A DNA stretch of 54,578 nucleotides, taken from contig JYFJ02002571.1 of assembly GCA_000934665.2 (NCBI GenBank), positions 1-54,578 of the forward strand. Direction: 5' to 3'. Below are positions 2,929 through 54,578 of the stretch, piece by piece. The translations under genes and the position numbers were made by a program. The stretch comes from Catajapyx aquilonaris. Lineage: Eukaryota. The notes under the pieces were generated by a model, which was not told where the DNA came from, did not search any database, and saw only the letters and a program-made list of their open reading frames with translations. Each line of letters begins with the position of its first letter. Positions within the stretch are counted from its first letter, which is position 1.

Positions 2929-3699
2929 GATGACGTCCCGTTCAAAGCGGCCCGTTTGGTATTGCACCATAATGCCTCGTAACAGTTATTGGCGTGATTG
3001 GACATTAGCTCCCAGTATTAGCTGCCTGATAATTTCCCCCACGTTCGGATGTACTTTGAGGTGACTTAATCTTGACGGTAATTGGAAAGGAAACGAGTTG
3101 AATATTTTGTGACGGATTACAATTAATAAAAGTCTGCCGGAAGCTGGAATTGGTCGAATGGAAGCTAATATTCCAAGTAGCTGTTATGAGGTGATAGAAA
3201 TAGCCGTGTGCATTCCACCGATCCTTTTCGTATGGAGTGGTGTGATGTCTGCCATGTTGGTTGGTCTCCTCCTCTTGTTTCCTTATGGAGATAGGAGGTT
3301 CTCATCCTTGCCGTTGGGGGCCACTCACCGCCACTCTCAACCGTGCCGGTCGTTGAGGCGTCCCCTTCCCCTCTCCTTTTTCCAGTCCTTCCGACGTTCC
3401 ACTGAGGGGAGGGCACGCCCTGCCTCGTGTCCGCCCAGGGGCCACACCCAGGGCCGCCCGCAGGCTCCAGCCTCACCGGGGGAAGCGACGTGGGTACCTG
3501 CAGCATCACCACGGCACAGTGTTGGGTACAGAAGAGGTCTTGTTGAGAGTCGCCTTATTCTAGGCCTACACTTGCCGCAGTGTTCCACAGTGTACAGGGG
3601 GACAGTTTGATGTTTCATTTTGTAGTAATGTGTATTGTCCAGATCCAGATGGTTTTAATGTGTCGTTGTAGGTTGTAGCAAGTTGTCTCTGTGCAGCAT

Positions 3700-5320
3700 C
3701 TTTGGTACTTTCACTGCCGCCGTGCTTGGCGGAATGATTTGCATAAGCTTGAATATGTGCAATTGGTTAATAGTACTGGTGTAATCCAGTAATTAAGAGT
3801 TATTTGGATGGGTCATGTTAACATTTAGGGCCGGTTTCACCGAGCTTGGTATATGATAAAACCAGGTTTCTTTAGGAAAATCCCATACAAATAGATAGGG
3901 ATTTTGAGAAAGAACCCTGGTTTTATCATATACTGAGCTCGGTGAAACCGGCCCTTAGATGGTAGCAGCAGCAATGATATGTGGATTTACTGGTCTGGCA
4001 TATGCCAAGGGTGTTGCAGTGGTGCGTTGAGGTTTTTTTTTTTTTTTGTCCCATTTCTCGGCGGGGTTGTTGAGCAGATTCTGGTGTCGCAGCAGCAGGA
4101 AAGGGTATGGATAATAATTTCCATGATTGTGTGTCTGAGGAGCAGTTAGGATTTTTCGCAGTCTACTTTCTGGTATTAAAATTGGACTTTGGGCCATTTG
4201 TGCTCTCTCAAAGAGCAGAATAGCACAGAGCATCTGTCAAGTTGATTGGTATACTGTGACCTACATGTAGGTACAACAACGAACATAATTCGGGTTCAGT
4301 TCAAATCCTCGTTTATTGTTACGCCAATTAATGTAAGGTCACCATATACTTTTAATACATATTTAGCAGGAAAGGGTGTTATGTGTATTTATTATCCACG
4401 TTTTTATCTGGTGAGCAGCAGTTAGGATTTTTCTCAGCCTACTTTCTGGTATTGAAATTGGACTTTGTGCCATTTGTGCTCTCTCAAAAAGGAGAATCTT
4501 GAATAGCACAGAGCATCTGTCAAGTTGATTGGTACTAAGCTTAGTGTTGATGTTACCTTTGTTCTACATTTATTATAAGTTCACCATATACTTTTAATAC
4601 ATATTTATTAAATATTGGGAAGAGTAGTTGTGTGAGCAACTTCTCACATTGCAAAATACATCTTAAATTTCATGCTGGTAGAAATGTGGGGATATTGACT
4701 GAGTTTGCTGCTCCTCATTCATAATGGCTATTGCGTGAAGTCATCTACAAATTGTCCACTTCCAGTTAGATGTCATGTCGTCATGGGTTGTGCGTCGTCG
4801 TCGTCATGTTATAGGTTGTCATTGGGTTGATCAGTTTGTTTGGTACTTGCACTGCCTCCGTGGTTGTCAGAAGGATTGGCTGCAGAAATTTCAACTTGAA
4901 TACGTGGAATTGGTTAATAATTCTGTTGTAATCCATTATTAGTGTGATTATTTGAATGGGTCATGTTACGTTTTCATTGTAGCAGCATCAATTATTTTGT
5001 TAAGTGTATGTCTATGGATCTGCTCTGGCATATGCCCAAGGGTCTCGTATATTACAGTTGTGGAGCGAAGGTTTTTTCTCCCATTTCTCATTATGGTTGT
5101 TGCGCAAATTGTGGTGTCACAGCAGCAGGGAAGGGTGTTATGTGTATGGATTGTATTTTCCATGATTGTGTGTCTGAGCAGCAGTTGGGATTTTCCGCAG
5201 TCTACTTTCTGGTATGAAAAATGGACTTTGTGCTATCTGTACTCTCTCAAAAAGGTGCACAATTAATAGCACAGAGCACATGTGGAGTTGTTTGGTACTA
5301 AGCTTGTTGATGTTGCCTTT
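3700..5320 (-). repeat. Three diverged local copies of an unknown decayed coding-like unit (~3700-4251, ~4366-4560, ~4838-5320)
   Basis: Shared blocks such as GAGCAGCAGTT(A/G)GGATTTT, CTACTTTCTGGTAT and AATAGCACAGAGCA in all three. Related sequence near 39870-39975. Confidence 0.8.
3828..3954. mobile_element. PIF/Harbinger (Tourist-like) MITE
   Basis: Long TIRs GGGCCGGTTTCACCGAGCT.../...AGCTCGGTGAAACCGGCCC; TTA TSD at 3825-3827 and 3955-3957. Absent from the paralogous copy near 4965. Confidence 0.92.
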
Positions 5321-6968
5321 GTCCCCCTACATATGTTAATTTTCTGAAGCACAAGTATACAGTTTTTAGAGGACGTGCCACCTATTATGAATAGCATATG
5401 CAGGTCTCGTTTGGCAATGAATAAATTCAAGTCAACAATCACCTGCGGCTGCCTATTATGAAGAGTATTAACAACGCCACCTATTAGAATGATCGGTAGT
5501 TAGTATTTATCTCATTATATATGTGCCTGGCCATATGCCATCTGTCAACACATTGTTATTAATTATATTATATGAGACTGCCCTGCCATCTCTGCCAACG
5601 AATTATTGAATTATTATAGCATATAGTATAGCATTGCCACAACCTAATTCTTAGGCAGTCGGACTATGGTATTTTATTAGCAAGTTCTTGTCATGTTGAT
5701 TTTTGCTTGTCCATCTTGTGTTTTACGTAGCTGGAGTAGCAGTGTCACATTGCAAATAATTGCACATGGTAGGTCGTCCGGAGGTGAGGTATGTTTGCAT
5801 CATGTTAGTTGTAGTTTTGTAGTGTTTTATTGTAATACCTTTTTGGCCCACATGGGCAGAGATACAGATACAGATGTCCATGACCAAAGCAATAATTTTT
5901 GGAATAATTTTAGGTAACCTTGCTCTTTTGGTAACTTCCACTCTGAGTTCCATGGAATTGCACCATGGTAGGCTATATGCTTTCCTTACTAAACGTGTCA
6001 TGACGGTCTCTGCCCTACATCTCTTTGATATTATTGCTGCTCTTAACAATATATTTGTTGGTGTTGGAGAGCTGGTGACATTGCTCATTTACGCCTACAA
6101 CTGAATCCAACAAATGGTGCGAGAATTTGTAATTTTAAATGGGAGTAATCCACTTCATATAGTGACTTGTTGACTATGCTGTCGATCCAGTAAATAGCGT
6201 TTGCTTATAGTGTCAAAACATGGCAGGCCTATAATAATTGCTTGAAAGTTGCTGTGTGTCCATGTTTTTATAGTGGTCAGATTTAGGGTTGCCCAAATTT
6301 TTTGAGGTACATTAACACAAGTCTGCAAAATTTTGCTCATCAAAGTATTTTAATTTTGGATAGTCATATTGAATGGCACTGCGCACTGATGAACATAACG
6401 AAAAATGTAACTAGATGCATAGTGCTCTGTTGGAGGCCACCAATAGGGATGATGACTCGTCTTCATCTTGCTTAGATCTTGTTGTTTGAAATATGTGATT
6501 ATTGCTAATACACTTGTTGGATGAGAAGCTGATTAATTGCACGCGTTCCTTCTGCAAATGAAAATTTCTGCTTAGGATTTTAGATTACTGGAGTAAGTGA
6601 TTTGAGTTGCTTCCCCCTGAGTTTTTGCTGCCTTTCAGGTCAATCAGAAACATTTGGCAAGGCAGGTTGTTTTTGGGGATAGCTTTTGTAAGCTATGCCA
6701 TGGTCTTACTAACTGCATGACAGGTTTCAAGACACTAAGAGATGGTTAATTTGACTGGTCTTCTGATAATATTATAGAGTTGTTTCTTCAAACATGAAGA
6801 GGATGAGTACTGTTGCTATACCAATGACTGTTCAAATGACTAGGATTTATTATTATTATTATTATGATTTACTTTTGTTTAATGCAAGGGCATAAAGGTC
6901 TGATTATTATTAGGGCTTTATTGTTTCTGTTCATGCATGCTTGATTTACTATTGCTGTCCGTATGTTA

Positions 6969-8194
6969 CCGCATGTTACCGTATGTTACCGTATTACCGC
7001 TGTTACCGTATGTTACCGCGTTTACCGCATCCTCTTTGCCCAGCTTAAGAGCACACGATACAAGGACTGGGCCCACGTGTACACCGACGGATCCAAGTCG
7101 GCTGACCACGTGGGGTGCTCTTTCGTCTGCTGCGGTGAGGCTCACTCTGAATCCCTCCCCGCAGCAACTACTGTTTATACGGCTGAGCTCCAGGGCATCT
7201 CCAACGCCCTGGAGCACATCCGCTTTGCCGGACACGCCCGCAGCGTCATCTTCTCGGACTCTCTGAGTTCATTGACGGCGCTGCACTCCTACTCTGACGG
7301 CACCCACCCGGTGCTGTCTTCTGTTATCCAGCGCCTCCAGCAGCTGGCTCTGCTGGGAGTGTCTGTGAGTTTTTGTTGGGTTCCGGGGCACGCGGGCATT
7401 CAGGGCAACGAGTTGGCGGACGAGGCAGCTCGCACCGCCTCCTCCCCCCGTGCCCAGGGCTGCGTGCCCCACCCGGATCTGCGGCAGGTGACGAGGGAAA
7501 GGCTGCTGGGCGAGTGGCAGGTCCTCTGGGACGGGGAGACGGGGAACAAGCTCCACGGGGTGAAGCCGGTCCTCTCCCCCTGGGGGTCCTCCTCCCGTCC
7601 CGACAGGAGGGAGGAGGTCGTTCTGGCCAGGCTCAGGATGGGGCACACCCGCCTCACCCACGGCCACCTCCTCAGGGGCGGGGACGGCCCCCCTCTCTGC
7701 GGCCACTGCCACCAGGCCCCTTCTCTGACGGTCCAGCACATGCTGCTGGACTGTCCTGCATTGCACCAACTCTGCCTAGACACCGGTCTCCTGCGGGCGG
7801 GAGATCCCGCTCCTTCCACCCTCGCTCATCTGCTGCCCGACTCTGCGGACCCCACTGTTATGTTGGCTCTCTTTTCTTTTTTGAAAAGAACCAACATGTA
7901 TAGAGATCTATAACCGTTGCATTTTAAATATATACTCGTAACGTTTTGTTTCACTTGTTACACTCTATTGAAATTTTATAGTCGCTACTGTAATAAATGC
8001 TCAAGTAATATGATAATTAATTAATTAATTATCTCATTTTTTAAAAATAATAAATAATAATAATAAACACATTTTGTTCAGTTAACGTTGGGGTTGGGGT
8101 GGCATTGCCTGCCCTGCCCTACAACGTCACAGGTGCTTGGCGCAGTATAGCCATTGCTGCTGTTGCGCCATTAAACCATTAATCAATCAATCAA
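6969..8194 (+). mobile_element. 5'-truncated, young I-group (I/Nimb-like) LINE
   Basis: 11-bp TSD TCCGTATGTTA (6958-6968, 8195-8205); (TCAA)n tail; 3' GGCGCA...TGCGCC stem; open RNase H frame. Confidence 0.92.
7019..7913 (+). CDS. C-terminal part of LINE ORF2: RNase H plus C-terminal zinc knuckle (truncated, no true start)
   Basis: YTDGS...TAEL..I...IFSDS.S...WVPGH.GI.GNE.AD; RLRMGHTRLTH; C..C.....HMLLDC. Confidence 0.92.
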
Positions 8195-11083: not shown

Positions 11084-11328
11084 AAAAAGTTTCATGACAG
11101 GGAAAAAATGTGTCTTCCTGATATAAAATTACAACAATGGGAGGACATGCCATCGGGCAGGGGTCTGACGTCAAATTACCATGTGGCTTTGGGGGATCAC
11201 CGTGGAATATTCTCAAAATAATGTGGCATGTGCCCCTGAGAGGTCTCTACTTGTTTCAAAAAGTTTCATGACCGAGAAAAAAATCTATCTTCCTGATATA
11301 AAAGTGCAACAATAGGAGGACAGCAGCC
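11084..11328. repeat. Diverged ~70-bp direct repeat (~11084-11150 and ~11258-11325)
   Basis: AAAAAGTTTCATGAC...TCTTCCTGATATAAAA...CAACAAT.GGAGGACA occurs twice. Confidence 0.8.
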
Positions 11329-11332
11329 TGGC

Positions 11333-11690
11333 CTGGGATAGCAAATGCTTCAGTCTCGATGAATACTCCATATGCCTTGCTGATCGCACCTGTAGGGTCT
11401 GCCAGCAGTGGGATCTCCAGCTGGCCCACGCCGTGATTATCTAGTGGGAGTTTTGGGGTGTTGCACCACGCCTGATGGATAACGACGTTGTTCGTAGAGC
11501 ATGCCATTACCTCGCATTCGATCTGCTGGAACCAGTTACAATTGTCCGAGAAAGACATGACTTCACTGGCACTAATAGGTAAATCGTGACTTGAACTTGA
11601 GATGACTCCCTGTATATGTAGCCCACCCAATAAAATCACTGTCTTTGCATGCCTGATGTCAATTTATTAGTGGCCTTGAAATGACTTGCT
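11333..11690 (-). pseudogene. Degenerate intronless 2-Cys peroxiredoxin (AhpC/TSA) fragment
   Basis: SEVMSFSD...FQQIECEVMACST...HQAWCNTP...GVGQLEIPLLADPTGAISKAYGVFIETEAFA aligns with the Prx1 core; upstream frameshifted ASHFKAT; FTFVCPTE active-site motif lost. Confidence 0.85.
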
Positions 11691-11959: not shown

Positions 11960-12230
11960 CCCCCCGATGGTATCTCCACCTTATCGTGGTGGTGGGGTTT
12001 GCGTTTCTCCCATGACCCCAAGAGCTATGCCGGCGGTAGCTTCGTCTACTGGTAGGGCCACCCAAGCCGGACAGGTCTTTGGGATAGGAGACAGACTAAG
12101 AGAGATGCCAGTCTTTCCTCTCTTCTTTTTCCTCTTCGTTTCTCTCTCCATCTGTCCCACCTTTGCTTCTTCTTACAGCCAGATAGCCACAGTTGCTTTG
12201 GCTTCTTCCAAATAAACCAAACCAAACCAA
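11960..12230 (+). mobile_element. Non-autonomous retroposon with RTE-5'-like structured head and (ACCAA)n tail, copy 2
   Basis: 12-bp TSD ACTGCCCTGAAA (11948-11959, 12231-12242); no tRNA A/B boxes seen; head resembles BovB/Expander-type RTE 5' UTR. Confidence 0.85.
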
Positions 12231-12799
12231 ACTGCCCTGAAAAGTGTAGTCAGTTAAACTAACATGACCATATACTGTGTAAATGTTCAGTGTGATACAA
12301 AACCGCCTCTTGTTGTGGCATAAAAAATTGTCGACTCCACGTGAAGATTGACCTCCTTTCTATACCTATAGGATAGGATTTCTAATGGATCTACTACTTG
12401 GCGATTTATTGTTTCAATCTTGCCTCTTGAAACACCTTGCACAGGGTGTCTCGTAATTCCCATCCCTTCTGGGCCTTTCTCTCAGTTTAGTATGATTAAC
12501 TGCCATCTAACTGACCCGTTTTTATTGGCTTTATGTGTTGTTGGTTACACCGTTGGCATGTGAACTCTGAAGTAAGTGCGCGTCACTCGTTAGTCTTTCT
12601 ATTGTTGTCTATGACAATGGCGGCATTCTTGGAAGCATTCCCCTTGGGAATTGTCCTGACTGTACTGCACAGTCCAGTTGTGGGTAGGGTGGAAATGACT
12701 TGCTGTATAATGATCCCAAATTCGTGTGGCTTTTTTTATATTTGGCGTACCGGTACGACAATCAGTTTAGTAAGTATTAATAATAATAATCATAATGGT

Positions 12800-13140
12800 A
12801 TATCAATGACACTCTTAGTAACAATATGGCTCGGACAAGCCAGGTCTCTGCCCCGGGCAGGCCACGAAGAAAGCTTCACGTCTTCGATGTTATTTCGCTT
12901 ACAATGCAACAGCAGCGTTAGTACCAGTAGATCAAAATAGATCTGATCTCGAGTAAATATGAGAAGATAATCGTCTTGCATTATTGCTACGCGGATAAAA
13001 CTTCCGTCTTGTAATTTCAGTGGTGCAACATGACCGAAGATAATGATTCCATATGAATGAAGGCAGGCAGTGGGTGTGTCCCAAGTTGCGAGATGATTGC
13101 GCTTGAAAAGTTGGAAAAAATATTTACAGGAGACAATTTG
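12800..13140 (-). pseudogene. Possible TARG1/OARD1-like macrodomain remnant
   Basis: Open frame FQLFKRNH...GHVAPLKLQDGSFI...YLLIFTR...LHCKRNNIEDVKL..PARGRDL resembles TARG1 (GEVAVLKRDGRYIYYLITK...[20 protein letters not shown]). Confidence 0.4.
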
Positions 13141-13639
13141 ACTTGTAGAGCAAATTAATGTTTTGCATAGGTCTAATGAACACTTCGTTTATTCACCACT
13201 AGTATGGACGTGATATTTTGGTCAGATAGCTAGATTGCATGGATAGACAGTAACTTCAATTTGTCATTTGATATCTTGACATTTTCATAGTTACAGACGC
13301 GAGCCTGAAAAAAAATGTTTTAAAGTGTGCCAACTATATTGCAAAACATTGGGTGCGAGATGGCTTATTTAACTGCAGCTGTCATGTAATTGAACTCTGT
13401 ATGACCACACATTCAGTGCTTGTTTGTATTATGTATTTCTCTGGGTTGTCCCATATCTCAGTTGGTTTAATGTTCCCATGAAGGCAAATATCCAAGCCGA
13501 CACTCGCAATATGAAAAAGGTCAATCACTTGTTGCAGAATCGGCTCTTCACCAGAAGTGTCCTTTTGGCCTCCTGCCGAGGCTCCTGGGACAATATAGTC
13601 AACGTTGAAGGCACTTGAAATATCTCATGCAGAGGGTGC

Positions 13640-15230: not shown

Positions 15231-15689
15231 ACTAGGCATATCACACGGCACTATTATTTTCATTGTAGTCTGTAGCTGCCGCGCCATGTAACTCTTTCTT
15301 ATTTTGTGACTTGCGATTCAGAAGAGACTAATTTGCCTCCTTACCCTGTAATTTAGCATATCCCCTTTTGCCTAGGTGCCCTTTCAACACTTAATTACGT
15401 CGCAGTGATTAATTTTATTTAACAATAATTTTGGTCATAGTCTCATTGGTAATTGCACCAGGAAATTACTGTATGTGTCCTTGCCAGAGAAGTTCCAGGG
15501 AAGGATTTTGAGTTCCGTGTAGCCCCAATTGGCCTCGTCCAGAAGTTTTGGCCATATCTTTTCTTTCAAGCAATGATGCATGTTTCTTTTTATTGTCCAT
15601 GGTGAAGACCCAGTGTCAACCCCAACCTCCTCATGGTAATGGTATGTCATTTTAGTAATACTATATTGTGTATTATTGTGTATTACCAA

Positions 15690-16310
15690 TGCGTTGACTC
15701 CCATGTGGATCTGACTGATATGAAAATTACGAGCAATTCCAATGCTTTCTCCACTTGTGGGCCTGTTTCTTTTACAGTCCTGTGCAGGTATTTTTTTAAT
15801 AATTTGTGTGGCATCTTCCTTGACTAAACATGAAGATATTAGCTACTTATTGTTGATTGTGCCACTCTCATCGGGAAGGTTCTAGCCCGTGAACTCATGT
15901 GACTATATGAAAGTGCTCCTCTTCTTGGTTTATTTAAAAGCGAAAGAGCGTATGTTTAATGATACTGTATTTTGTCTGCTGCCTTTGAGGCACTTCCTAA
16001 TCAGACTGATCTTCTCTCTCACACACACTCACTATGGATTCTCTCTGAAATTTTGCCCTCACGTGACAGCACAAGTGCTTGACTCTCAGCGAAGCATGAT
16101 TGTTGCTACCTGCAGATTTCTTGGAATGCTCGACCTTCCTGGATGAATTTTTGTTACCTCTTAGGTGATATCAGCACTTGATCGATACAAGGAAGCTTGG
16201 TTGAGGTCATCTCACCATGTCAGATGAATTCCAACATTAAGTTTTCCCTATTTTGTTTTATCCACGTCCGGCACGTAGTTGCAACACAATATTGGCCTAA
16301 TGCTGAATTT
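15690..16310 (-). pseudogene. Crypton-type tyrosine recombinase C-terminal remnant, copy 1
   Basis: Colinear frameshifted motifs LRAGRG...SDMV / YRSSAD / KIHPGR / LQVATI / VPQ / HEFTG*NL, matching the animal YR family pattern IRGKRG..TPDM / YRGSD / LRKxVAT / RLP / EFxGKxL. Confidence 0.5.
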
Positions 16311-16922
16311 TATAAATCGCTGATAGTAGTAATCTGCCATAGGTTGTCAAGGTGTCGTGTCCGTCAGGAACAAATAATGGATTTTCTTTGTTGACACCTC
16401 CTGTACATGTTTTTCTCATGAATCCAAGTCAACTTATTGTCTGATATGACTTCCCATTTTTTTAAATTTTTTTTAAGGACACCATCTTCTGCAAGGATTC
16501 ATTTACTTTGTGCATGTCACTGATGCAGTCGTATGGAGGGTTTGTTATGGGTTGGTCAGGCCTGTTCTTGTTGCATCATACTGCTTAAAAAAACAGTCTC
16601 CATGAATAATGCCAAATGGCAACCCGAAACTGTAACATCTTGTCGCATATAAAATTATTGTACTACACATGTATAATTATTAACAGTGGATAAACTGCAG
16701 TGGTGACTAATGGTATGATTGCGGGGAAAAAGTAACTGGGTGATCTCTGATAAACTTTGAATTGAATTTCACATTCTGCTTTGATACGGATATGCTCTAT
16801 GTTGGTGGATGATTTATTTGTTACTGGTAAGCTATATGCGGAGATTATAATTGGTAGGAATAACATTTCACTCCGGACATTGTTTTGGTAGCGATGTGTT
16901 GATATCATTTCATGCATGTTGT

Positions 16923-17560
16923 TCACCGGAGTTTCTTGCACTTGGACTTTTCCCCCTTCTTTTTAGACTCGAGAGCTGCCTTCTCGGGTGTGTCCGTACT
17001 TATAGCGGTTTTCCTCCTCTTCGGTCCACGTCCGGAATCTCTTCTAGGTCCTGCCTCAGTGTAAGGACTTATAGCCCAGTCTTCACAGCTGATGTTAGGC
17101 CCAATCCTGAGACGGCCCTGGTTGGTCGTTAGATGCTTAAGCATACTGATCCTGAAAGTTCAAGTCCATTTTACAGTTACGATTTTTTTCAATGCCCATG
17201 TTCTATGAGATATAACCTAAAGAGTCTATTGGGCCTAGCTTATCTGTTGAGTCAGCGCGATCCGTTACAAAGGATTGCCCAAAATCGATGTCTCGGAAGA
17301 TGTTGGGAGTTGTGGGGGTATATTCATGTGACTGAATCAACTTACTATGTTTCCCAGGGTCACAGCAAGTGCCCCGGAAGGTCATAGATTGTCATTGTTT
17401 TTCCGGGGCTGTTTCGGAGCCAGCTATCCTATGCAGAGCTCAGGTACGGTTTCACTGGTCCATATACACTTATATCCAAAAGCTGGAGTTTATGGGAACA
17501 ATGGGGTGGAAAGGACAGGAGAACTGCGAGTATTACAACCTGCCCCACGTTCCCCTACTA
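16923..17560 (-). mobile_element. pogo/Tigger (DDE_1) transposon remnant, internally deleted
   Basis: VLLSFPPHCSHKLQLLDISVYGPVK...WLRNSPGKTMTIYDLPG...NIFRDIDFGQSFVTDR...AGPRR...TAISTDTPEK; TIR-like TAGTAGGGGAACGTGGGGCAGGTTGTAA directly upstream. Confidence 0.88.
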
Positions 17561-19185: not shown

Positions 19186-19232
19186 TGGCCTAATACTGCA
19201 TTTTATAAATCGCTGATAGTAGTAATATGCCA

Positions 19233-29620: not shown

Positions 29621-29624
29621 TTTA

Positions 29625-39149: not shown

Positions 39150-39225
39150 GGGAGAGGGAACTTCATCCCTCTTGATTAGTTCCCCTTTCGTCCACCGAAC
39201 ATCAAAATGGTGACAGCATAATAAA
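39150..39225 (-). pseudogene. THAP-like remnant
   Basis: CCHHFDVRWTKGELIKRDEVPS resembles C..HF...LK.DAVPS. Confidence 0.35.
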
Positions 39226-39579: not shown

Positions 39580-39730
39580 CATTGTATGACTTCGGAGTGG
39601 GCCTTAGGCTCCAGTGAAGTCATATCATCCATCTTCAATCTCAAGATCATATATTAAAGCTCCACCCCGTTCTCCAGCAACATCTTCACCATTTGTAAAT
39701 GGCCGACAAGTGCTGGGTGTCCTGAACTAG
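39580..39730 (-). pseudogene. Ankyrin-repeat remnant
   Basis: GHLQMVKMLLENGVEL*...MTSLE..AHSEVIQ. Confidence 0.6.
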
Positions 39731-42079
39731 TTAAAGGAGAGCTGCGTCCACAGGGCAGCCAGCGGCAGGTCCTGGAGATACTTAGGTATCAATGACCGTT
39801 GGCTATAGAATGTTCATGGATATACGGTCCTGGAATATGTCCAGTTTGCAGTGGTGTTGTGGCGCTTCATGTCCCTTTTTCCATTAATTATGGTTGTTGC
39901 AAGGTTTTTAGGCAAATATGTCGTTATGTTGTCATTCACAGCAGGACTGTCTCTGAGCAGCAGTTGCGATTATGTGTAGCTTACTGTCTGAAATCTAGCA
40001 ATTACAGTCTGGAGCTGTTCCCATCACAGCAAAATGGGAACACACCCTTCTCCCTTCCTGGCATGTCGCCGTCATCAGCATCATAGAAATGAAACTTATG
40101 CACACTGCCGTTGAAAGGAAGGGGATTACAGGGCTGTTCCCATTTTTTTAAAATGGAATTTGTCTCCTTTGTATACTTTCGCAAGGAGTACAGAATCCTT
40201 AACTGCACATCGTCTGTGAAGTTGATTAGTACCAAACTTGTTGTGTCACCGTTGTTCTCTGGTCCCAATATTTAATGAATATGTATTGTCACCTCATTTT
40301 ATAATTGCAGGAGTTGTGTGAGAGCAATGTGCCACATGTCAAAATGTATTTTAAATTCCAGGATGTTCGGAAGGTGGAGATGTTCCAATAGCTTTTTTCA
40401 TGGAAAGTTGGTGTAATTGCATGTACACGTACACAGTATTCCTTCTGCAGAAACCAGCAGACTTTACATAAGTCATGTAATAATGAAATTAAATGATAAT
40501 GAAATATTCGGCTTCTGAAGCCCAGTTGGCTAAGACACCTTGATCCCGCTTCAGGTGTTCGAGTCTAATTTTCTCGCCAGTTTATATCGCACGTCTAGAT
40601 GTCCTGGCTATTAAATTGAGCGTCTTTAGGAACCCTGGACCAATACTGCATCTATCTTCCAACATCGTGACTGATTTAGCATCCTTTCTGGACTATGCAT
40701 AATCTCTTGAGCCAGTTATTCTCTTAAGTGCTTCCAGTTTCTGATTACAATTTATGAATAACCTGGTCATTGGTGAGTCTGACGACACGCTCGTGCATTC
40801 GAGCATCGCTCCCTTGAAATACCTGACCAAATAAATCGGTCCCCACATCTTTGGTGACTCATTCTGCAGGAAAGACAACTGAAGACTGTCTTTCCGTCCT
40901 GAGCTTGTGGTAACGTTCCAGTTGCCTTTTGCAGCAACCATTGCGAGTAAGCAAATTCCTCGGGTTTCTCTTCATTCCTTCACTTGATCAGGATGTTATT
41001 TTGGTTATCACTATCATCTCGTGAAGACGTGAACCATGAATCTACACCCATGTCTGGTTGTGGGCAGTGGCCAACCTCAACTTTTATGTCCATCATGCTG
41101 TAGTTTCAGGTGTATGTGATGTCGGAATAAGTTGTAGAATTTGGGGATTTTTCTGGTCGAAGTCTCCGTCACTTTACGATTATTCGTAAGTCATACCCTT
41201 TTGTAATGGCACCCTGCGTCATTAATATTAATTAAAAACACAGCTGAAGCACTTAGAGTGAGGTCGAATGAACGAGCACGCGTCGCGTGATTTGGTGATA
41301 CCTTATGCTGTTTCTAGTTTCTTAACCACAATGGCCACTTGGAACGGCTTATCGCTTCCATCAAGAGACATCTCCTATATCCAGATCACTGCAGCATTCT
41401 CAGTTTTTCCAGTGGCATTAAACTCTGGGTCGTGATATCATGGCTTGCTTTGTCCATTATGAAGTTATTATAATGTAGGATGGATCTTATTTCTCAGTAA
41501 GTGCAATTTGTACATTGCATTTTATTGACCTTCACTAATTAAGGTGTGTCCAGAAATAGCTACTAACACATGATTACGGAGGAGTATTTTAAACAGTCGA
41601 TGTTGCATAACAACTGCGGCCATGTTTGGCACAAATGGTCACTATATCATTCAATCATATGCACTGTTGCAGCCCTATCCAGATTTGCGTCAGTGTTACA
41701 TTTACTTGGAAAAATAACTACGGCGATTGTATAACTGCAGCCTGATAAAAGTGCAATGACATCACGTTTTATAGGAGAGTTGTTGCCGAAGATATTCACG
41801 AAATTCCAGTGTGTCGATGTGTGAGTTCGAGATTATGTTGCAGCCTGTCAGTTGGGGGGCTGCCGACACTGTTCTTACTGCAATGGCGAAATGGATCCTG
41901 TGCCCTGCTGTAATGGTGAATTGTAATTTTATAAAGTGCATAAAATGAGTACGTGACATTCATACGTACTAATACATGCTGCAATCTTCTATTTTCCACT
42001 CTTCTCAGTGCCAATAACTTTAGAAGGATACTCTTGACCTGGGGAAGCCTCACTTGAGTTGAGCTACCATCATCCAGTT

Positions 42080-42830
42080 TGGGCTCCACTTGGTAATTAA
42101 TTGAGGTTGGATTGTCCTTGCTTACATATTCTTCTTCCCATAGGTGCTTATTTTGGACATTGGGAAAACAGTGGCCAACTGTACAAACTATACAGTACAA
42201 GTAAACTCTCCACACAACAACTCGAGCACTCTGTGTACTATCAATGTCTCACGGTGCCGTCGTTCATTCTCACAATCCTTTCCTCACTCTTTCACACCGC
42301 TCACCATTTGCAATTCGCTGTGTTTAGCGAAACTTAACGTCAGTGACGCTCTTCACAGGATCCGCTGTCGATTAGACACTTCGCTGGTGTATCCTTTATT
42401 ATACCTGCTAGTTTGATGAAGCCTTGATTTTGTGGTGAACAAATCGTTCCGGAGCGCTTGTTTTGTAGCATGGATATTTGTGCTGGCTTCTTAGCTGGTG
42501 ACCCTGGGTTGCGATTCTTCCACTGTGCCCGCCGTAAGGAGGGGGGTGGATCCTCCACCCCATCAAAATTGACGTCAATGTTTGGTCCGTGAGTTGAAAA
42601 GGGTGAAGTCCAAAGGGCACACGTGACATAGGCTACTTGCGTCGGACCCTATGGCACACACCTGAGTGAACTTGCTGTCTCTTTTGCAGCAAATGCCAGG
42701 CGACGCATTGCCTCAAATGGTCCTCTACTTCAGTGAACATCCCGTGCAAAAAAAATAGGATGACACAACGCCGATGGCTTCGGTGACATCCTGGAGCTTC
42801 TCGGCCCATTTTTGAAGCCAGCAGCCACCA
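42080..42830 (-). mobile_element. Ty3/Gypsy gag-protease remnant
   Basis: FIKLAGIIKDTPAKCLIDSGS (aspartic protease motif), IVRMNDGTV, NPTSIN; upstream gag-like GFKNGP...EAMR. Confidence 0.65.
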
Positions 42831-45419
42831 TACTGAATATAGTAATAATTAGAGATGGCGCTGGAATAATCGTCAGTGGTTTACGATATGTCCACTATCT
42901 TGTCATTCTACGCCATCTTCATCAAGTCCCATGTAGCTTGGAATGCCAGCGAGAATAAGCATTTTAGGCTTCTTCAGCTGTACATAATTGTTCATCCATG
43001 GCCGCACAATGGACTACACAATAGACTACCTGAAACAATAACAGAAATGCTGTTTACTTTCCGTAGTTTTCATTATTACCTATCTTCATTGAATAGCCCG
43101 CTTGATCTTTTACAGCGAATCGTCATTGATATTACGATTGTATACTGTCTGCCGTCCCAATACGATCTCACATGTCCCTGCTGGACATGACATGATCACC
43201 ATAGTCTTTTGCATATTAAAAACATAACCTTGACTAATGTCGTTGCAGTGAGTCGCGTTACATTATAATAAGTACAGGTGTTTCTTGATGAAGGGTTTGC
43301 GAGATGTATTCCATCCGGTTCCATCGCCTCTGCTACATATTCCTTTCGCATTATAGTGAAACGTACACTGACGTGAGAGGCGCAGAATTTGCATGTTGCA
43401 TGGTTTGCATGGTGTTGTCGGAGTCACCTTCAACGCTCTGCAAGAGCTCTGTATGTTTCAGAGGGCACAACAGCCGAGAGATTGTCTGTGAAATGAACAT
43501 AAGGAATTACACAGCGTTCGAAAGGGGCTTTGGCAATAAAGTCAACAACACATTTACCCGTAGCGCATCTTCAGAAACCACTACTTCCACAAAGCTGTCA
43601 ACCATTATTATCGAATTGCTGCAGCCTCTTCGGGAGCTGACGCATCTGATGAGGAAGAGATAAAGCTTCTCGCGATGATACGTATATCATATCATTCTAT
43701 TTGTAACAGCAAGTCACACCAAATGGAGAGTAATTAAAATGTCGGTCTATCCCTGTTTTTCTGTGTTCATTCGTACTGTGAATCCAAGCCACAGCATGAG
43801 ATGGAAATCTGTCTGACTTGGGATCATTGTCAAACTTATCTCATAATTTTTCTTCAGAAATCACTCCGCGGAAGCAGTGCATTAGTTGTGGTCCTCCGGT
43901 ATTTTTTTGTCCTTCAAACACGCCCCCTTAGGCAATTATTTCTGCTTTTCGCGACGGGAGTATTCCCATTCGATGCGTATATGACATGTTAATTTCCTCT
44001 GCCTTCGCCAATCATTGGGAATAGTCTTGCTGCTTACTTCTTCATGGCGTGTATGCTTATATCCCAGTTGTCGCATAAAATATTATGACATTAGTGTTTG
44101 TCGCATTTTTGGACCAATTTCCTTCGGGGACGTTTTTAGCATTCCACTTTTAAAAAGGCGGGACAGTAATTGCACTATTTTTTAAAGCAACAAGATGTCC
44201 GACCTCTCCTCTTTTTTTTTTAAGTAATGAAAATGGTCTTCCAGTGCGGTCGAATTGGTCTCTGCTATTAGAATGGCAAGGCATGATCACCATTTGTTTT
44301 AGCTATCGACGCACTCTTAGGAGAGTGTTGACGACTCGAACTATAACTTCAGTATGTAGAGTTATCATGTAAATGATTTATGTACGCTATTCAACTCAGG
44401 CTGTAAAGTACTGTGAGCGAATGATTGAGCAGGCCTTCAGTATTTTCGGCCCGGTGCAGCGCCCAGGCAGCGCCGTATATTCTTCTCAGAATTATTATAA
44501 TATCACCACCGAGTATTAAGTGACCAGTATGTGTTACATTGTTGTTCCTTGAGTCGCCAAGTTGAAGATCTTCAACCATGTCACTCGTTAAAGGGAAAGT
44601 GTGATGTGTGGGAATAATGCAATGTTTTAGGTGGCGTTAAGATTGCCATATGTACAGGGCTGCCCCCAGTGACAGTGTCAAAAGCACAATTTTTGCCCAC
44701 AAAATTATAGTTGGGAAATTAAGTTGTAATGATGAGATGTTACATGATTATGAATGGATAAGTGATGCTGCTACATTGAATGGTGGTCCGGAGAGGGAAT
44801 CTCATCATTCTGTAAGACTCGTCCTTCTTCCGTCCACCGTTGGCTGCAATGAAGTCGTGTCCAGGCTCGTGTCCGCCCCTGGGCTGCCCTCGCCAGGAGA
44901 AGTGAGTTGCAATATTATCCCAGTCTCCCAAATTTTCTCGCCATTTTGTATCACGTCTAGACTCCTCTATTAAATTGAGCGTCGTGAGCGTGGATAGTTA
45001 CCGCTTCTACCGATTGGCCGTCCGTCTTCCAACATCGCAATTGATTTCATATCCTTTCTGGACTCGATATTTCCTAATGAGCCCCAGTTATTCTCAAAGT
45101 GATTCCAGTGTCTGACTATTGCGATTGACCCAAGGGTGAGATGCAAAATCCTCCAGGGCCTGACCAATGCGATAATGTGATCATTTTATTGCATGTGCTT
45201 GGTTCAAATGGGTTGGTAGCCCTTTGGGTGTACATAACAATAATTTTAAGCCTATGATACAGTACTAGAAAATGTAATGCCACTTTAAAACAACAGGCAC
45301 TTCTCCAGGTAGAGCCACCAACCAGTGTTTACTTGTCAGCCACTAATTAATAAGGATCCGTATAAAGCTATTTAGTCTGCTGAGGATCATCCATTACAAA
45401 TTGCAATAAATTGCGCTTC

Positions 45420-45750
45420 AGATTTGAGAGTGGGCGAATTCTATTGCACCCCAAGTCTGGATGGTGATGTAGGCTATGAATCTGGCATGTGTTGTGAAAG
45501 GAAGAAATGTTTCTTGGCTTCGCACAATCGTCCACGTTCCACAATCTCCGTCTTCACTTTCCTTCACGATTAACTCGAATAATCTTGGGTCGACAACGTC
45601 CCTCCAGAAGCTGGTTAGTCCTCTTTTCCGCTTGCAATATTCCTCCATAAACTCAAATGAGCTGTTGAGTAAGCTTCCATGTTTGGAGGGATTGAACCTG
45701 CTGCATGCTGCTGTAGATAGTGCAAAAGCGGTTATATATGTGTGATTTCC
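45420..45750 (-). mobile_element. Probable C-terminal remnant of the ISL2EU-like transposase
   Basis: AACSRFNP...NQL...W...GAIEFAHS; same strand and downstream of 46190-46520. Confidence 0.35.
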
Positions 45751-46189
45751 AGAAAATAATAGAAAGCTGTTCTGATAGTTGCAGAAATCTGATATTTTAG
45801 TCTGTCGGTGGTCTCAAAATGATTTGCCGCAGCATTAGAACTGGGTCATATAGTGAGACAGTAATAATTCACTGTGTATGGCGCAATAATAAACTGATTA
45901 ACTAGTCATTGAGTCAAAAATATGACTCTACTATTGGGTCAATGTATGATTCATGTCAAGATTGTGGCGACCCGTCACCTCCCGAGAAAGTACTGGGAGC
46001 ATGGGTTGGACGATGCTTGCCTTCTCGTAAATTTGTGTGTTATATCCGAGGGAGACAGTAGATATGTTTCGGCATCTCGACCTTCAGGTCACAAGCTCTC
46101 CAACAACGTTGGCCCTGAATCCGCGGTGAACATCAAGAATTATGGTCAAGTATCCAGGAAGGTAGTCCTTCTGTTGGTAGAAGGATGTG

Positions 46190-46520
46190 CATGATGATGG
46201 GAGCATCATTGGTCTTGCCATCTGCGAGGAAAGGACCGATCACATCCACGATATGTCCAATGGTCGTCGTCACCATCACTGGTTTGACAAGCGACCTGTG
46301 CTTGTGAACCGAGTAGGTCCTCCTGGCAGAGGGATAGTCAGCTGATCGCTCCACATAAATGTATATGTATTGTCCAGGACAAGAATGACAACATCAGTCT
46401 GGCCACCTGCAAAGAGCCTTCGGACAACAGGGTATGTGTGCTTGCTTATTACATCGTTGGGCTTCACAGCGTCCTTTTCCGCACGATATACCAGACATGT
46501 GCTTACATCCTCACCAACAA
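46190..46520 (-). mobile_element. ISL2EU/Harbinger-related (DDE_Tnp_4) transposase fragment
   Basis: ILVLDNTY...RRTYSVHKHRSLVKPVMVTTTIGHIVDVIGPFLADGKTNDAPII. Confidence 0.85.
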
Positions 46521-46589
46521 CATTTGTTGCTGTTGAAACCCTCGTTTATGACATTTTTACTCCACTCATAATCATATCCGGCGTAGACG

Positions 46590-46800
46590 CCATCTTGGAA
46601 ACTCTCCAAGCCTTACCAGTGAATAGAAATAGCCGATTGCAGTCCTATTTCTATTTTGGCCTGTGCCATAGCCTGAGAAAACGACCTTTTCGACATCTTT
46701 GGGAAGTTCTTTCTCAAAAAAGTGGTGCAAACGTGACACCACCTCATCTGCCTCATGTTTTGCAATATTTTCCATACGACAATACATAGATTCCCTCACT
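46590..46800 (-). mobile_element. Sola-like transposase fragment
   Basis: ENIAKHEADEVVSRLHHF...VEKVVFSGYGTGQNRNR resembles E..AKRGxNEVxSCL...FSDxCxGQNKN. Confidence 0.65.
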
Positions 46801-46948
46801 TTCATTTAAGTAATAAGCTGAAAGAGGTGATATTAATTATTCATACACTCGCGTCTCTGATGAATTGTTAACTTTACATCCACTGGTGACCACCATCTTA
46901 GCCATAGTCTGCATCAGCAAAGTGAGATCCTGGAAAAACTTTATAGGA

Positions 46949-47009
46949 TCTGCAGAGTTTGACTGGAAGGTTTCGTTGTCAACGAAACCTTCCAGTCAAA
47001 CTCTGCAGA
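46949..47009. repeat. Perfect 30-bp-arm palindrome with 1-nt centre (micro-MITE)
   Basis: TCTGCAGAGTTTGACTGGAAGGTTTCGTTG-T-CAACGAAACCTTCCAGTCAAACTCTGCAGA. Confidence 0.95.
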
Positions 47010-48179
47010 CCCAGGATTGGTTTCAATAAATAAATCAGGAATCATAGTATATTATTCTCGTTGCAGTACATCTTGTACTTGACTTCGGGGAATGTAGCGA
47101 GTCTCATCTGTCATTACCATTTGAAGTGGTCTTTTAAGTCAGCCCATTGAGGCCATAGTTGAATGTGTTTGGTCGTGCATTGTCAAGTTAAAATGAGAAC
47201 AGTTTTTCTAGGATGATGAGGCGTTGCAATGTCATCCTCATTATGATGCTGCCAAAGCCTTCCAATGTGTCATGCATAATATGTACTGCATAATAATTGC
47301 AACAATTCATATGCAGCATAAATAATATGTGAAACAAATATACCTCTTACATAATAAATGCATAGCAATAATATTAATGGCGTAATAATAATTTTCTGCG
47401 CTTATATAAGAGCTGAATAGAATAACATTGCTGTTGAGTATGCTGTGTGTGTGACCTAGCAGTTTTGTATCCCACATATTTTAAAAAAACAATGATGTCA
47501 TATTGTAGGATCACCCTGTATGGATGGGCTAATGTGGACATATTTTACCTGTGCAGTACGGCCTGCCACTTACTCTTAAACATCTTGGTGCATCTTTATA
47601 ATGTGACTCAACTCCACACCTCATAACTACAAAATTTTAATAAGTGTGCGTCCAAACCAGCTTTCTACCATCCAGTCTACGTTATTTGGGTTACCAACTC
47701 GCTTCGGCCTTCTCCTTGTTATATTTCAGGCACATCACCTTTTGCTCTCCGCACCAGCTTCTCTTTTCTGGGTATAACTGCTTCCTTGTTGGCGATCGGA
47801 ACCAATTCTGTTAGGAACGTGCTCAAGAGAGTCATGACATAAACAAGGGCCAGCATCGCCTCTAATGATTAGCCAGATTTATATGCCTGAGGGTCCATCC
47901 TCATCGACTGGGTTGTAAGTGGTGGTGAACTGCTCGGGAATGGTCGAAATTATCTGCTCTGATATCTCAGACACATGCCCTGTTGGCGCCACCGCCTGTC
48001 TTGAGTCATTAGAATTTCCCATCTCTGTGTTGAGGCAGAAAAAAAGGTGTACAACTCTTGTATGAAGCCGAAATAACTAACAGCGTCAACAGAGCAAGAG
48101 GCTGCATGTCCAACAAGATTCAATGAGTAAGCAGCACAAGGAATGAAAACTGCTGCTGGATTCTTTTCCTTAAGTGTGT

Positions 48180-48430
48180 AATTTTCATGCCAATTTGCAC
48201 ATTGATGTCTCCATGCCTAAGTTTTTGCAGCATTCTTGAAATTGCCTGTGATTCGTGCCTCCACTTGAAGAGGTTATGTTTAGTTTCATATCTTATGCAC
48301 CAAAATCTCACCGTGCATTGGGCCAAATTTTATGATACAACCTGAGTAGTGAAAATAATGGTGATGATTGTTAATCAGATTAATGACTTTGAAGAGTTGT
48401 TTCATGAACTTGGTGGTTTCTGAAGTAGAC
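48180..48430 (-). mobile_element. EnSpm/CACTA-like transposase fragment
   Basis: KQLF...HHHYFHYSGCIIKFGP/ FWCIRYETKHNLFK matches HY...I...GP...FWCMRFEAKH. Confidence 0.7.
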
Positions 48431-48629
48431 AATTTTTATGGTGATGACATGTCGGTGAAGGATCTCTCAAGATAATCCGTGTTGTTTGCAACTAGTTTTG
48501 TCGCAAGACCGATTTCACTTCGCCCCCTTCGTAGTGATGCGATGTCGTGAAACACCACAACCTTTTCCTGCACTTCTTTATATGCAAGTCGTCGATTTCG
48601 GATGAGCACGGTGTCGACGACTGGAAGTA

Positions 48630-49123
48630 CAGTGCTGGCCATATATCGAGGCAACGACTTGCGACATTTCCAAGCTCACAGTCGCCTCCGCACTGTTCGA
48701 GATGAGACTTGCATCTGCAACTTGTACATGACTCGGTCGGATGCCTGAAAGCGATCCTCGTCCGTACAGGTGAGGACGGCTGCATCTTCCTCAGGGGTCG
48801 TCTTTCGTGGCCTCGTGTTCTTCTTCCTCTTGTCTGCCAGTCCAACATATCCATACTGGTTAAATGCGTCAACCCACCGGTGGACAGTGCGTTCCAAAAC
48901 GTCAAGGGCTACGGCAATGTCACCAATGCTTCGGCCACACTCCCACATCCCAACAATGATTCCACGATCAGCAACGGAAATACTGGCCGGCATCTTCAGG
49001 ATCGCACAATATTTGGAGTAATGTTCGGAATTCACCGTACAGTGACACGAGCAGGCAGGAAATGATGACAAGCCGCTTCGGAAAAATGTCGCTAGTCGTT
49101 GCCTCGATATATGGCCAGCATTG
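48630..49123 (-). mobile_element. Internally deleted Tc1-like element retaining the N-terminal HTH coding region
   Basis: ~40-bp TIRs CAGTGCTGGCCATATATCGAGGCAACGACT; TA on both flanks; MPASISVADRGIIVGMWECGRSI..IA...TVHRWV...RPRKTTPEED...VSSRTVRRRL. Confidence 0.93.
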
Positions 49124-50399
49124 TACAATGCTTGGTTCTGGAGACAGCCTCACTCAGTGCCTCCTCTTCAGTGTCAGTGTTGCTTGCTTTTTAATTCCCT
49201 GCTGCTGGAGGGGTTTGGCGAGTAGCCACAGCGTGTCACATACACTGGTGGTTGGCTTCAGCGGCGTCAGTGGCGGGAGAAAGTAAGCGGAGGATGGGAG
49301 GAGGGTGATGAGGATCAGTATTATATCAGTAGGCGGAGGATGATAGGGAAGTGCAGTGCCGACTGCAAATGGAATAAATATGCATCGGAAATTTTTAATC
49401 GTCAGATGGTGAATCGTATTTGTGTGATTGCTGTAAAGGCTGAATTTGCTCTCTCATGAAGTTGTTCATCAGGCTCTTCACACTGGGGAACTTCATCAAA
49501 TACTAAGGTGTACGTACGACATGCATACGGCAGCCGTGGCACGCCACATCATGTTTCAATAAGAGTGTATTAAGAAATTTGAACTATTATCATTTACAAT
49601 ACCGTGCTAATAATTAATTTACTAAAGAGGCGAATAAATTGAACTTAGAGTACATGTACAAATATTCACCTTCACAGTTTACAATCCCCGATAGTGTGAG
49701 GCTGTCCACGTCACAGGGTGCGAAGCAGGGCATCCAAGGCCTCTTCCGGCGAGATGCGCTGCTCCTGAAAAATGGAGAGCAATTTGTGTCAATATTAGCT
49801 CATACGGGATTTTTTGTCGGTAATTCAGGCATGAATGAGGGTCAAAAACTGACTTGACCGGATCAGGTTCCCAAAGCCTGAAGAGGAGATCCGGGAATTT
49901 GCCGCGAGGAATGTGAGACGGGCTGTTGATACCACTCTCCTCTGTTATTTCCTCTGCTCGGGTGGCTTACGAGCACTCTTCATCATCCTGCCAAAGGAGG
50001 AGGACTTTTTACCCTTTCTGACCAAGTCAGAACAAAAAGCGGGCTCAAATGTGCACAAGGCAATAAGCATGCATGTGTGTAATAACCAGCACTTGCTATC
50101 AAGCCGTACACTCCATAAACGTCATTGTAATACTGTAATTTGGTAATGCTTTATGGTTCAACTGGAATTTGATTGTTGTTGTGGCATATAAAGAGAATGA
50201 GGGCAATTTGATATGACTGTAAACATTTCGACTGGTAATGACAAAGTAGTAGTAGTATTTTTATTTCCTTGATGCTTTCGCATATTGGAAATACATCTCT
50301 CCCTTACATAACAATGTCCGCAAATTTCAGTTTTATTACAGCTTGTTTAAAGAATTTGTATAATGCATACACCCTATGCACCGGTATATCCACAAACAA

Positions 50400-51540
50400 T
50401 TGGAAAATTTTATCCGGGGGCACCCTTTGAAAACCTTCAATCTCCATCCTGGCTTCCCCAAAAAAAAGAACATTCAAACATTCGTCACATGAAACAATGA
50501 GCCACCACTCAGACCCGAGCACAGTGTGCAGTTCTCCTCGGCTTCAATTCTTATCTTGTAGTCATTTACCCACAAAAATTTTGAACTATTTCTTAAGTTT
50601 GCAACTGTGACAGGATGGACACATAGACACACGTTTATGACCGGAGCGGGGGGATGCTAAAGCAAATAGAGGCTTACGCATGATCTGAGTATTTATTCAC
50701 TGCGAGGAAGGAGAGAGGGATAAACTTAGGAGAGGGAAAAGTTGTGACCGGAGGCATGCCGACAGTTCGTGGCAGCCCTAGGTCTGGCCAGTGGTTTCCC
50801 CAGCAGGGGCAAACCCAAGGCCCCGACCTCCCTGCCTGGATATTCTCCAGGACCAGAAGAGGTCCTCGACCACCCCAGCCAGGATATTCTCCTGGACCGG
50901 GAGAGGCCCCGAATGACAGGCTCCCGTGGTTTATATAGTCCCCAGACAACCCCACAGCATGGTGGGACTGTCGACAGCAACCAATCAGAGATGGGCACAT
51001 TCAAAGTGTCGTAAGATGAGGGGAGGAGCTTACAGTAATATTATTCAAGGCGGGAAATAAAATATGATTTAGCTGGTACTGTCACACAACCATCCGCACC
51101 AGATTTATTGCCATCCCTGAGTGCAAATACATTTCCTGTGTGTATCCATTTGATATCTCTTTATAGTGTTTATAGTGTTTATAGTGTAGTGTAGCGTTCA
51201 GTGACTTCTCATCACTATCTATAGTATTTTCAATAAAGATCGTTACCAATTCCTCTATATTAATTGTCCTGTACTGTAGCAACCAATCTTTCCACGCCAC
51301 TCCTGCGACCTGCAGGAGTTTATCCACTTGTTGCAACCACCCCACTTTTGGACTCGCGCCATTTCTGCATAAGAACTTATAACCTTGACCCAGCACACTT
51401 TCCACTGGTTCCTCCGGCAATTTCCGTAAAAAGGACATTAGCTTTTTGAATACTTGTACCGATAAAGGCCTCCTACCTGATTCAAACCGAACAAAATAAT
51501 TTGCACTATTTTTTGGTAGTAATGACAAAGTACAACTCGC
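50400..51540 (-). mobile_element. RTE-X-like LINE 3' remnant, interrupted by a solo LTR
   Basis: LLPKNSANYFVRFESGRRPL...GWLQQV...YKHYKEI...EMYL; continues past the LTR toward ENCTLC. Confidence 0.65.
50606..51086 (-). mobile_element. Solo LTR (Gypsy-like)
   Basis: TGTGACAG...CTGTCACA termini; 4-bp TSD CAAC (50602-50605, 51087-51090); TATATAA followed by AATAAA on the minus strand; internal ~28-bp direct repeat. Confidence 0.88.
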
Positions 51541-53630: not shown

Positions 53631-53950
53631 ATCTAGTACTGTTGGTATGGATTGAAATGAAATCTAAAGTACACTGGAGGTTACCAGAAGCATAATGTTG
53701 CTTTGTTCATATGAGCTATGGCCCGATACATTGAGTTCCGTCAGTCTTTGCCCAATTTTTTGTGTCAAAAGATGATCTGATATTGACTCAATGACCTGAA
53801 GTTATGATCATTACTATCAATTTTCCATATTTGAACAGTTCTGTTGTGGGAAATTTAGGAATATGTCCTATAAACATGCCACTTGTTAAGTCCCTTGCTA
53901 CAATCCAAGGGTTCATTATGAACACGCAGCTTATTGCGGTATCAAACACT

Positions 53951-54273
53951 TGTGACCGTACGGGACGGCAGGAAAAACACGTGGGTGACTTGTACACGAT
54001 CGTTTTATTTCGTAACGCTATGACATAAGCAATAAGGATATGGTAAACAAAAAGGTGTGTGTGCAGGATTTAGGGTGGACACCCGGCGCGTCCCGAAGGA
54101 TACGCCGGAAAGACCTCGAGGAGAAAGTGGGGCTGGTTTATATACCACTGGAGCCCCACTGGTTGATGGGAGTGGAGAGAGGGCTGATGCAACATATGGT
54201 TCCAGGAACATCATGACAAGCAGAGCACTATTAGAGTCTGTATAGTTCCATGCCTCCAACTGGTACGGTCACA
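53951..54273 (-). mobile_element. Solo LTR (Gypsy-like)
   Basis: 11-bp terminal IR TGTGACCGTAC/GTACGGTCACA; 4-bp TSD CACT (53947-53950, 54274-54277); TATATAAA followed by AATAAA on minus. Confidence 0.88.
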
Positions 54274-54578
54274 CACTGTACACATGTAAGGAGTCTGTCC
54301 AGAAGGTGTAAGGGTTTCGGATTAATACAACCAAATTTTCTATGTTACATTCCGCCGACATTAATGTCCCTAGATGTCGGACTACAAACCCTCCTGACCC
54401 GGAGTACTCACCTACGGCCTACAATGCAACAGGGAAGAGACCCCCTTGCCCCAAGGGGACCCCAAGACCCCCTTGCCCCAACACTCCTGCAGCCACCGTG
54501 GGTGGGGCTGCAGGTAGTAACATCAGCCCGTCCGCTTCTGATGGCGAAGTCATGGACACGGACGCCACCAACCCACCA

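Follow-up and report, generated by a model that had tools for sequence, protein, structure and literature searches.

We analysed a 54,578-nucleotide stretch of the genome of Catajapyx aquilonaris (contig JYFJ02002571.1 of assembly GCA_000934665.2, positions 1 to 54,578; hereafter the window), which had been predicted, from reading the sequence alone, to lie inside a uni-strand, flamenco-like PIWI-interacting RNA (piRNA) cluster transcribed on the + strand and holding antisense fragments of many unrelated transposable elements (TEs). We found that the window contains a domain of approximately 43 kb, from position 1800 to 45200, in which T exceeds A on the + strand, and we tentatively propose that this domain has long been transcribed on that strand in the germline as an ordinary RNA polymerase II unit, a reading that we place a little short of an even chance. 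The observations behind it are a compositional skew that is bounded at both ends, remnants of TEs and genes that lie mostly on the minus strand, and strand-asymmetric substitutions between sequences that were duplicated within the domain. The observation behind the original prediction was partly confirmed: its compositional part held and was sharpened to the domain of about 43 kb, its TE inventory was only partly reproducible, and the strand bias of the remnants was suggestive, not significant.

The T-richness that had been noted by eye was found along the entire + strand. Base counts for the whole window were A 14231, C 11449, G 11799 and T 17099, and T outnumbered A (a negative AT skew) in 27 of 27 2-kb bins and in 52 of 54 1-kb bins. 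Because the AT skew was still -0.083 when every A or T run of at least five nucleotides had been stripped out, the T-richness is not an effect of poly-T tracts; runs of at least six nucleotides numbered 55 for T and 26 for A, with no excess beyond what base composition predicts. A three-segment fit of T minus A placed the best breakpoints at 1800 and 45200, each approximate to within about 1 kb. The T/A skew, a check proposed together with the cluster, was then computed: (T-A)/(T+A) was 0.109 within 1800-45200, compared with 0.018 and 0.023 in the two flanks, and when 500-bp blocks were shuffled 200 times the contrast of the fit was never reached. At both ends the skew falls to about zero without a change of sign. 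G+T made up 53.5% of the domain and 50.7% of the sequence outside it, which is the sense-strand excess over the flanks (T>A, G>C) by which germline-transcribed regions are recognised. Compared with human values, the T-A skew seems strong at 0.11 and the G-C skew weak at only 0.018; the observed/expected ratio of CpG was 0.67. Within the domain the T-A skew was 0.063 in recognised inserts, 0.113 in the remainder and 0.116 in a single-copy contig of 7.3 kb (37152-44455). Since the skew is higher outside the inserts, it is a property of the old background that insertions have diluted, and not a product of A-rich elements on the minus strand.

Substitutions between the two local duplicate pairs, whose copies diverged in place, were also strand-asymmetric. 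A and G were exchanged at 144 of 1650 purine sites (8.7%), and C and T at 130 of 1913 pyrimidine sites (6.8%; Fisher p = 0.032). This is the direction that work on mammals would lead one to expect if the + strand is the non-template strand, and it hints at a strand-specific mutational process that may be continuing, with the + strand acting as non-template. The accessible part of Polak et al. 2010 (PMC2927911) treats the imbalance between A->G and T->C, and describes transcription-linked asymmetries in the introns of mammals and fishes that differ among taxa.

The remnants were sought with Pfam (E <= 0.01, both strands) in all 731 stop-to-stop open reading frames (ORFs) of at least 40 amino acids in the window, 464 of them of at least 50 amino acids and 267 of 40-49, and with homology searches. 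Between positions 3000 and 54300, where fragments of about a dozen TE groups had been named and said to lie almost all on the minus strand, only eight oriented remnants were recovered. Seven are on the minus strand: a peroxiredoxin fragment, a Mutator-like element (MULE) counted together with an NRF1-like piece, a hAT scrap, an element with a helix-turn-helix (HTH) domain, a reverse-transcriptase scrap, a Harbinger scrap and a short interspersed nuclear element (SINE) scrap. The plus tally consists of one long interspersed nuclear element (LINE), the sole clear + strand element in the window. An I-like LINE had indeed been listed among the few exceptions on the + strand; a Harbinger and a hAT piece were listed with it, but the two that we found lie on the minus strand. 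A measure that needs no repeat library pointed in the same direction as this tally, in that 33 minus-strand ORFs of at least 100 amino acids were present where dinucleotide shuffles gave 11.1 (z = 6.8), compared with 23 on the plus strand for an expected 13.8 (z = 2.5). By our own count, leaving out the LINE and the ORFs that are shadows of minus-strand remnants removes the plus-strand excess.

If the domain is such a transcribed unit, it would consist of one or more long introns of a host gene with unrecognised exons, an alternative that the original prediction had itself named as refuting it, or would encode a long non-coding RNA. Mutation and repair linked to transcription would have made the non-template (+) strand rich in T and in G+T, and insertions carrying their own termination or splicing signals would have survived mainly in antisense, that is, on the minus strand. 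The signals that we verified are equally those of any region with a long history of + strand transcription in the germline, and none of them singles out a piRNA cluster. Because piRNA clusters take up a much smaller part of an animal genome than introns and other transcribed DNA, prior expectation favours ordinary transcription; a piRNA cluster, as a special case of + strand transcription, is the less likely of the two.

Several features of the domain recall the long-transcribed regions of Glusman et al. 2006 (FEAST, PMC1391917), for which the available excerpts list a G+T excess on the forward strand, biased substitutions in repeats, antisense repeats and a poly(A)-signal bias as marks, and give 52.7% as the G+T content at equilibrium of transcribed strands in humans. 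Like those regions as excerpted, the domain has two ends, an excess of T and of G+T on the presumed sense strand, repeats that are mostly antisense, and strand-biased substitutions in repeats or duplicates; unlike them, it has no poly(A)-signal bias after correction for composition, and its host is not a vertebrate model. An antisense bias of TEs in host-gene introns is the subject of Zhang et al. 2011 (PMC3088655) and Conley and Jordan 2012 (PMC3517506). To judge by the accessible portions of these papers, the window is similar in that most recognisable insertions are antisense to the presumed transcription. It differs in that the intronic bias concerns retroelements with termination signals, whereas the one clear LINE of the window has the sense orientation and most of its antisense items are scraps of DNA transposons.

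A number of results weigh against long transcription of the domain. The tally of remnants is small, and the binomial test of strand bias that had been suggested as a check gave a two-sided p of 0.07 for seven minus versus one plus, and of 0.375 for the strong matches only (four versus one). Three of the minus-strand remnants (Harbinger, hAT and the HTH element) fall outside the skew domain. Four (MULE, Harbinger, hAT and the HTH element) are DNA transposons, and these are all of the recognisable ones in the tally. Selection of the kind that acts in introns explains this composition poorly, because read-through is expected to have little effect on elements of this class (Glusman et al. 2006, PMC1391917, as excerpted). 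The same source, in the part available, reports depletion of poly(A) signals in real transcripts. In the domain AATAAA occurs 27 times on the + strand and 44 times on the minus strand, but correction for composition leaves no depletion on the + strand, with observed/expected ratios of 1.71 (+) and 1.36 (-). No host exon was recognised on the + strand, where the RNase H of the LINE was the sole Pfam domain among the 731 ORFs, a search that short or lineage-specific exons would escape. Finally, the substitution test is unpolarised and weak (p of 0.03), and the rules by which its asymmetry is read come from vertebrates.

Some of these results would be expected if there were no transcription unit at all. 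The T>A domain would then reflect the direction of replication or a historical asymmetry, such as old strand-biased repeats that are no longer recognisable, and the minus bias of the remnants would be chance. We consider this unlikely, although it is the most serious competitor of ordinary transcription. A tally short of significance, AATAAA that is not depleted on the + strand after correction and a window in which no sign of an exon or promoter was found all agree with it, and two long minus-strand ORFs without real relatives mean that the ORF excess may reflect neither genes nor TEs. However, the skew drops to about zero at the ends of the domain and keeps its sign, unlike the pattern at replication origins or termini, and it is strongest in the single-copy background. 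The asymmetry between duplicates likewise points to a strand-specific process that continues, and the excess of long minus-strand ORFs is independent of the tally and has the same direction.

The uni-strand cluster, in which a long + strand precursor would be processed to piRNAs and antisense TE scraps would provide the targeting, appears to us improbable. What defines such a cluster is a dense output of uniquely mapping small RNAs of 24-32 nt from one strand, with 1U bias and phasing; for its one promoter and long RNA polymerase II precursor the start of the skew domain near 1.8 kb would be the only, indirect, indication. Such a locus would carry the same signals as ordinary + strand transcription, and selection for antisense piRNAs would explain better than intron-type selection why four DNA-transposon remnants and a non-TE pseudogene are all on the minus strand. 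The presence of many unrelated families, each as a short scrap, and the failure to find a + strand exon among the 731 ORFs would also suit it, and unidirectional clusters are recorded outside Drosophila, for example in Aedes aegypti (PMC7161354, in the part available). Against this, clusters of the uni-strand kind consist mostly of TE fragments, often nested, whereas recognised TE and pseudogene sequence amounts to approximately 7 of the 54.6 kb (about 13%, as summed intervals; old non-coding fragments would escape an ORF-based search), and 25 of 30 bins across 30000-49999 are near single-copy. The minus bias moreover continues outside the skew domain, and clusters make up a small share of genomes. 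Flamenco is packed with Gypsy-type long terminal repeat (LTR) elements, and a flamenco-type cluster should be enriched in LTR elements of the Gypsy or endogenous retrovirus (ERV) type; no Gypsy/ERV protein domain was found in any of the 731 ORFs, nor did Pfam match an LTR-type reverse transcriptase, integrase, gag, protease or env among them on either strand. The accessible descriptions of flamenco and flamenco-like clusters in Drosophila (PMC10495008) and Aedes aegypti (PMC7161354) resemble the window in a span of tens of kilobases, one prominent strand and unrelated fragments that are mostly antisense. Flamenco itself extends over hundreds of kilobases (PMC10495008, as excerpted), unlike the window, which is mostly single-copy, has about 13% recognisable remnants and gives no LTR-retrotransposon protein signal.

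Harder still to credit is a specific form of this idea, in which the skew domain would mark out one + strand piRNA precursor. The cluster would then be largely unique sequence, sparsely sown with antisense DNA-transposon scraps and a pseudogene, and mutational strand asymmetry alone would reveal its extent. Were it true and confirmed by + strand small RNAs, the locus would be a further unidirectional piRNA source in a poorly studied animal, with cluster borders that show up as a domain of compositional skew; several animals are already known to have uni-strand clusters. T-richness combined with antisense repeats does not suffice to tell piRNA clusters and ordinary transcribed regions apart. 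What probability ordinary transcription, the absence of a transcription unit and a piRNA cluster leave between them belongs to other causes.

We turn to the remnants themselves. The non-TE pseudogene is a decayed fragment of a 2-Cys peroxiredoxin at 11259-11663 on the minus strand (Pfam AhpC-TSA, 1.8e-11), which matches peroxiredoxins in the PDB at about 1e-14 and has Ser at the position of the peroxidatic Cys. The MULE transposase remnant (35138-36388, minus) comprises three ORFs with Pfam PF20700 matches of 2.4e-11, 1.6e-4 and 3.3e-6, and its depth of 52-61 over a baseline of 28.5 indicates that the DNA run contains roughly two copies. Immediately upstream and on the same strand, so that the two together span 35138-37028, lies a fragment of an NRF1-type DNA-binding domain (36729-37028, minus; Pfam Nrf1_DNA-bind, 2.3e-10) that aligns with the human NRF1 structure 8k3d (1.3e-11). 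These pieces may derive from a single transposase whose N-terminus was an NRF1-like DNA-binding domain, or may be two unrelated remnants. Contig depth and reading of the sequence identified 44 bp at 37145-37188 (minus) as a scrap of a tRNA-derived SINE with a very high copy number, and reading of the sequence a fuller copy with an (AAC)n tail at 96-445 (minus). By our reading of B-box and tail, the two have the same orientation. In the bin that holds the scrap the summed contig depth reached 10367, compared with the baseline of 28.5, and the other copies run on into a tRNA-like arm.

The remaining DNA transposons lie to the right of the skew domain. Homology searches assigned a scrap at 48004-48174 on the minus strand (extent by tblastn) to the hAT superfamily: the ORF containing it (47953-48216, minus) has eight hAT-type relatives at 51-64% identity that carry PF14291, PF27073 and PF05699 (DUF4371/Dimer_Tnp_hAT), and about 56 amino acids are left of a protein of about 880. 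Close by, a transposase-type HTH N-terminus at 48679-49149 (minus; HTH_32 at 4.7e-11, with HTH_23, HTH_29 and HTH_28) sits in a high-copy element at about 48.0-49.3 kb. A probable Harbinger/PIF-type DDE scrap at 46136-46393 (minus) is a weak match, to positions 6-58 of the 158-position DDE_Tnp_4 profile at E = 0.035, and the ORF had no match in the PDB; the adjoining minus-strand ORF 46084-46239 contains a motif that may be Harbinger-like. This scrap was the only yield of a looser Pfam pass (E <= 0.5), which took in 148 of the window's 160 ORFs of at least 75 amino acids, the 12 others being ORFs already matched and overlapping ORFs of the GC-rich LINE block. All other weak matches in that pass were to unrelated families. 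Weak Pfam matches to Apolipoprotein/Filament, DUF5407, zf-Sec23, HEV_ORF1 and others were deemed chance. In the whole window Rfam at gathering thresholds gave no matches and ARAGORN no tRNAs.

The + strand LINE is a 5'-truncated I-like non-LTR retrotransposon at 6966-8068. It retains the last approximately 285 amino acids of ORF2, comprising RNase H and a C-terminal Cys/His motif, followed by a 3' untranslated region and an (AAT/TAA)n-like tail near 8043-8068. The RNase H ORF (6945-7910, +; Pfam RNase_H, E = 1.3e-14) has as relatives 270 ORF2 proteins with endonuclease, reverse transcriptase and RNase H, with a top identity of 45%. A tblastn search with 120 ORF2 proteins, and a profile hidden Markov model (HMM) built from 50 of the 63 proteins of at least 1150 amino acids, showed that the copy covers only ORF2 positions of about 944-1229. 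A 10-bp tandem repeat, CCGCATGTTA, present in 7.6 copies at 6959-7030, adjoins the 5' truncation point.

Besides the LINE, these ORF2 searches detected no L1-, R1- or RTE-like piece other than one weak reverse-transcriptase scrap on the minus strand (32596-32913). It gave an RVT_1 match at E = 0.0065 (32770-32913) and, over 32596-32826, a tblastn match at E = 0.003 and an ORF2 HMM match at i-E = 0.0046; the three signals coincide in place, each being weaker than normal thresholds. Pfam and homology searches of the window ORFs likewise detected no endonuclease, Tc1 DDE or tyrosine recombinase. Of the TE groups that the original prediction had named, Gypsy, L1, R1, RTE-X, Kolobok, ISL2EU, Sola, EnSpm and Crypton gave no protein signal and pogo was also not verified; for the most part, then, profile and homology searches did not reproduce the TE names given by eye to short fragments.

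Some ten long ORFs of the minus strand, in excess of the shuffle expectation, have no Pfam family, examples being 12793-13188, 15438-15842, 23804-24163, 27574-27951, 33984-34364, 41799-42248 and 51085-51540. For 51085-51540 very large protein sets contained zero relatives, and for 41799-42248 a lone ankyrin-repeat match among 1.84 billion proteins was judged spurious. An Atlas search with the minus-strand ORF 45421-45813 gave no usable match (top score 0.77). A 90-amino-acid ORF at 29270-29539 (minus) has weak Pfam matches of coiled-coil type (Apolipoprotein, 1.7e-5; Filament, 5.6e-4), which could mean that it derives from a coiled-coil protein, for instance a LINE ORF1, or could be fortuitous.

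Four DNA runs of a single study contain the window. Repeat content was gauged over 20 kb (30000-49999, 30 bins) from the DNA contigs of one run, X1. Depth was flat at about 28.5 in most bins, with the near-single-copy state of 25 bins assessed at >=90% identity, and the contig of 37152-44455 is identical to the window over its 7304 bp, with no other contigs on it. Clear extra contigs at the same identity threshold appeared in 5 of the 30 bins. The strongest pile-ups were at 36670-37336, around the SINE scrap, and at 48009-49342, where the HTH element had summed depths of 745-2728; milder ones were at 33335-34001, 34669-36002 (MULE) and 46008-46674. In a second run, X5, the matches to 30000-49999 were confined to short stretches of the high-copy SINE and of the HTH element, and we do not take its lack of cover elsewhere as evidence.

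Self-blastn and alignment revealed two larger local duplications, with no strand assigned. One is a tandem duplication at 15358-20967 with a unit of about 2.9 kb (15358-17895 versus 18218-20967, approximately 85% identity). The other is a 1.27-kb direct repeat at 22602-25560 (22602-23867 versus 24287-25560, 89% identity), which may be an LTR pair or a tandem duplication and is the only candidate LTR pair of the window. The self-comparison further gave a few short dispersed direct pairs, and its inverted matches were five small self-palindromes and one pair in the HTH element. No orientation could be assigned to a repeat, some 235 bp long, that occurs at 2171-2403 and at 11962-12196.

Near the left edge of the skew domain lies a near-perfect palindrome of 93 bp (2836-2928), whose arms are 92% alike and each contain TGACGTCA, a motif resembling the cAMP response element; a third TGACGTC follows just downstream. 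The palindrome could be a foldback element or miniature inverted-repeat transposable element, or a bidirectional promoter element. We also observed a unit of about 200 bp in three direct copies, roughly 80% alike, at 4042-4251, 4365-4562 and 5072-5322. The first copy begins at a run of 15 T (4033-4047), and the copies may come from a SINE on the minus strand or from local tandem repetition.

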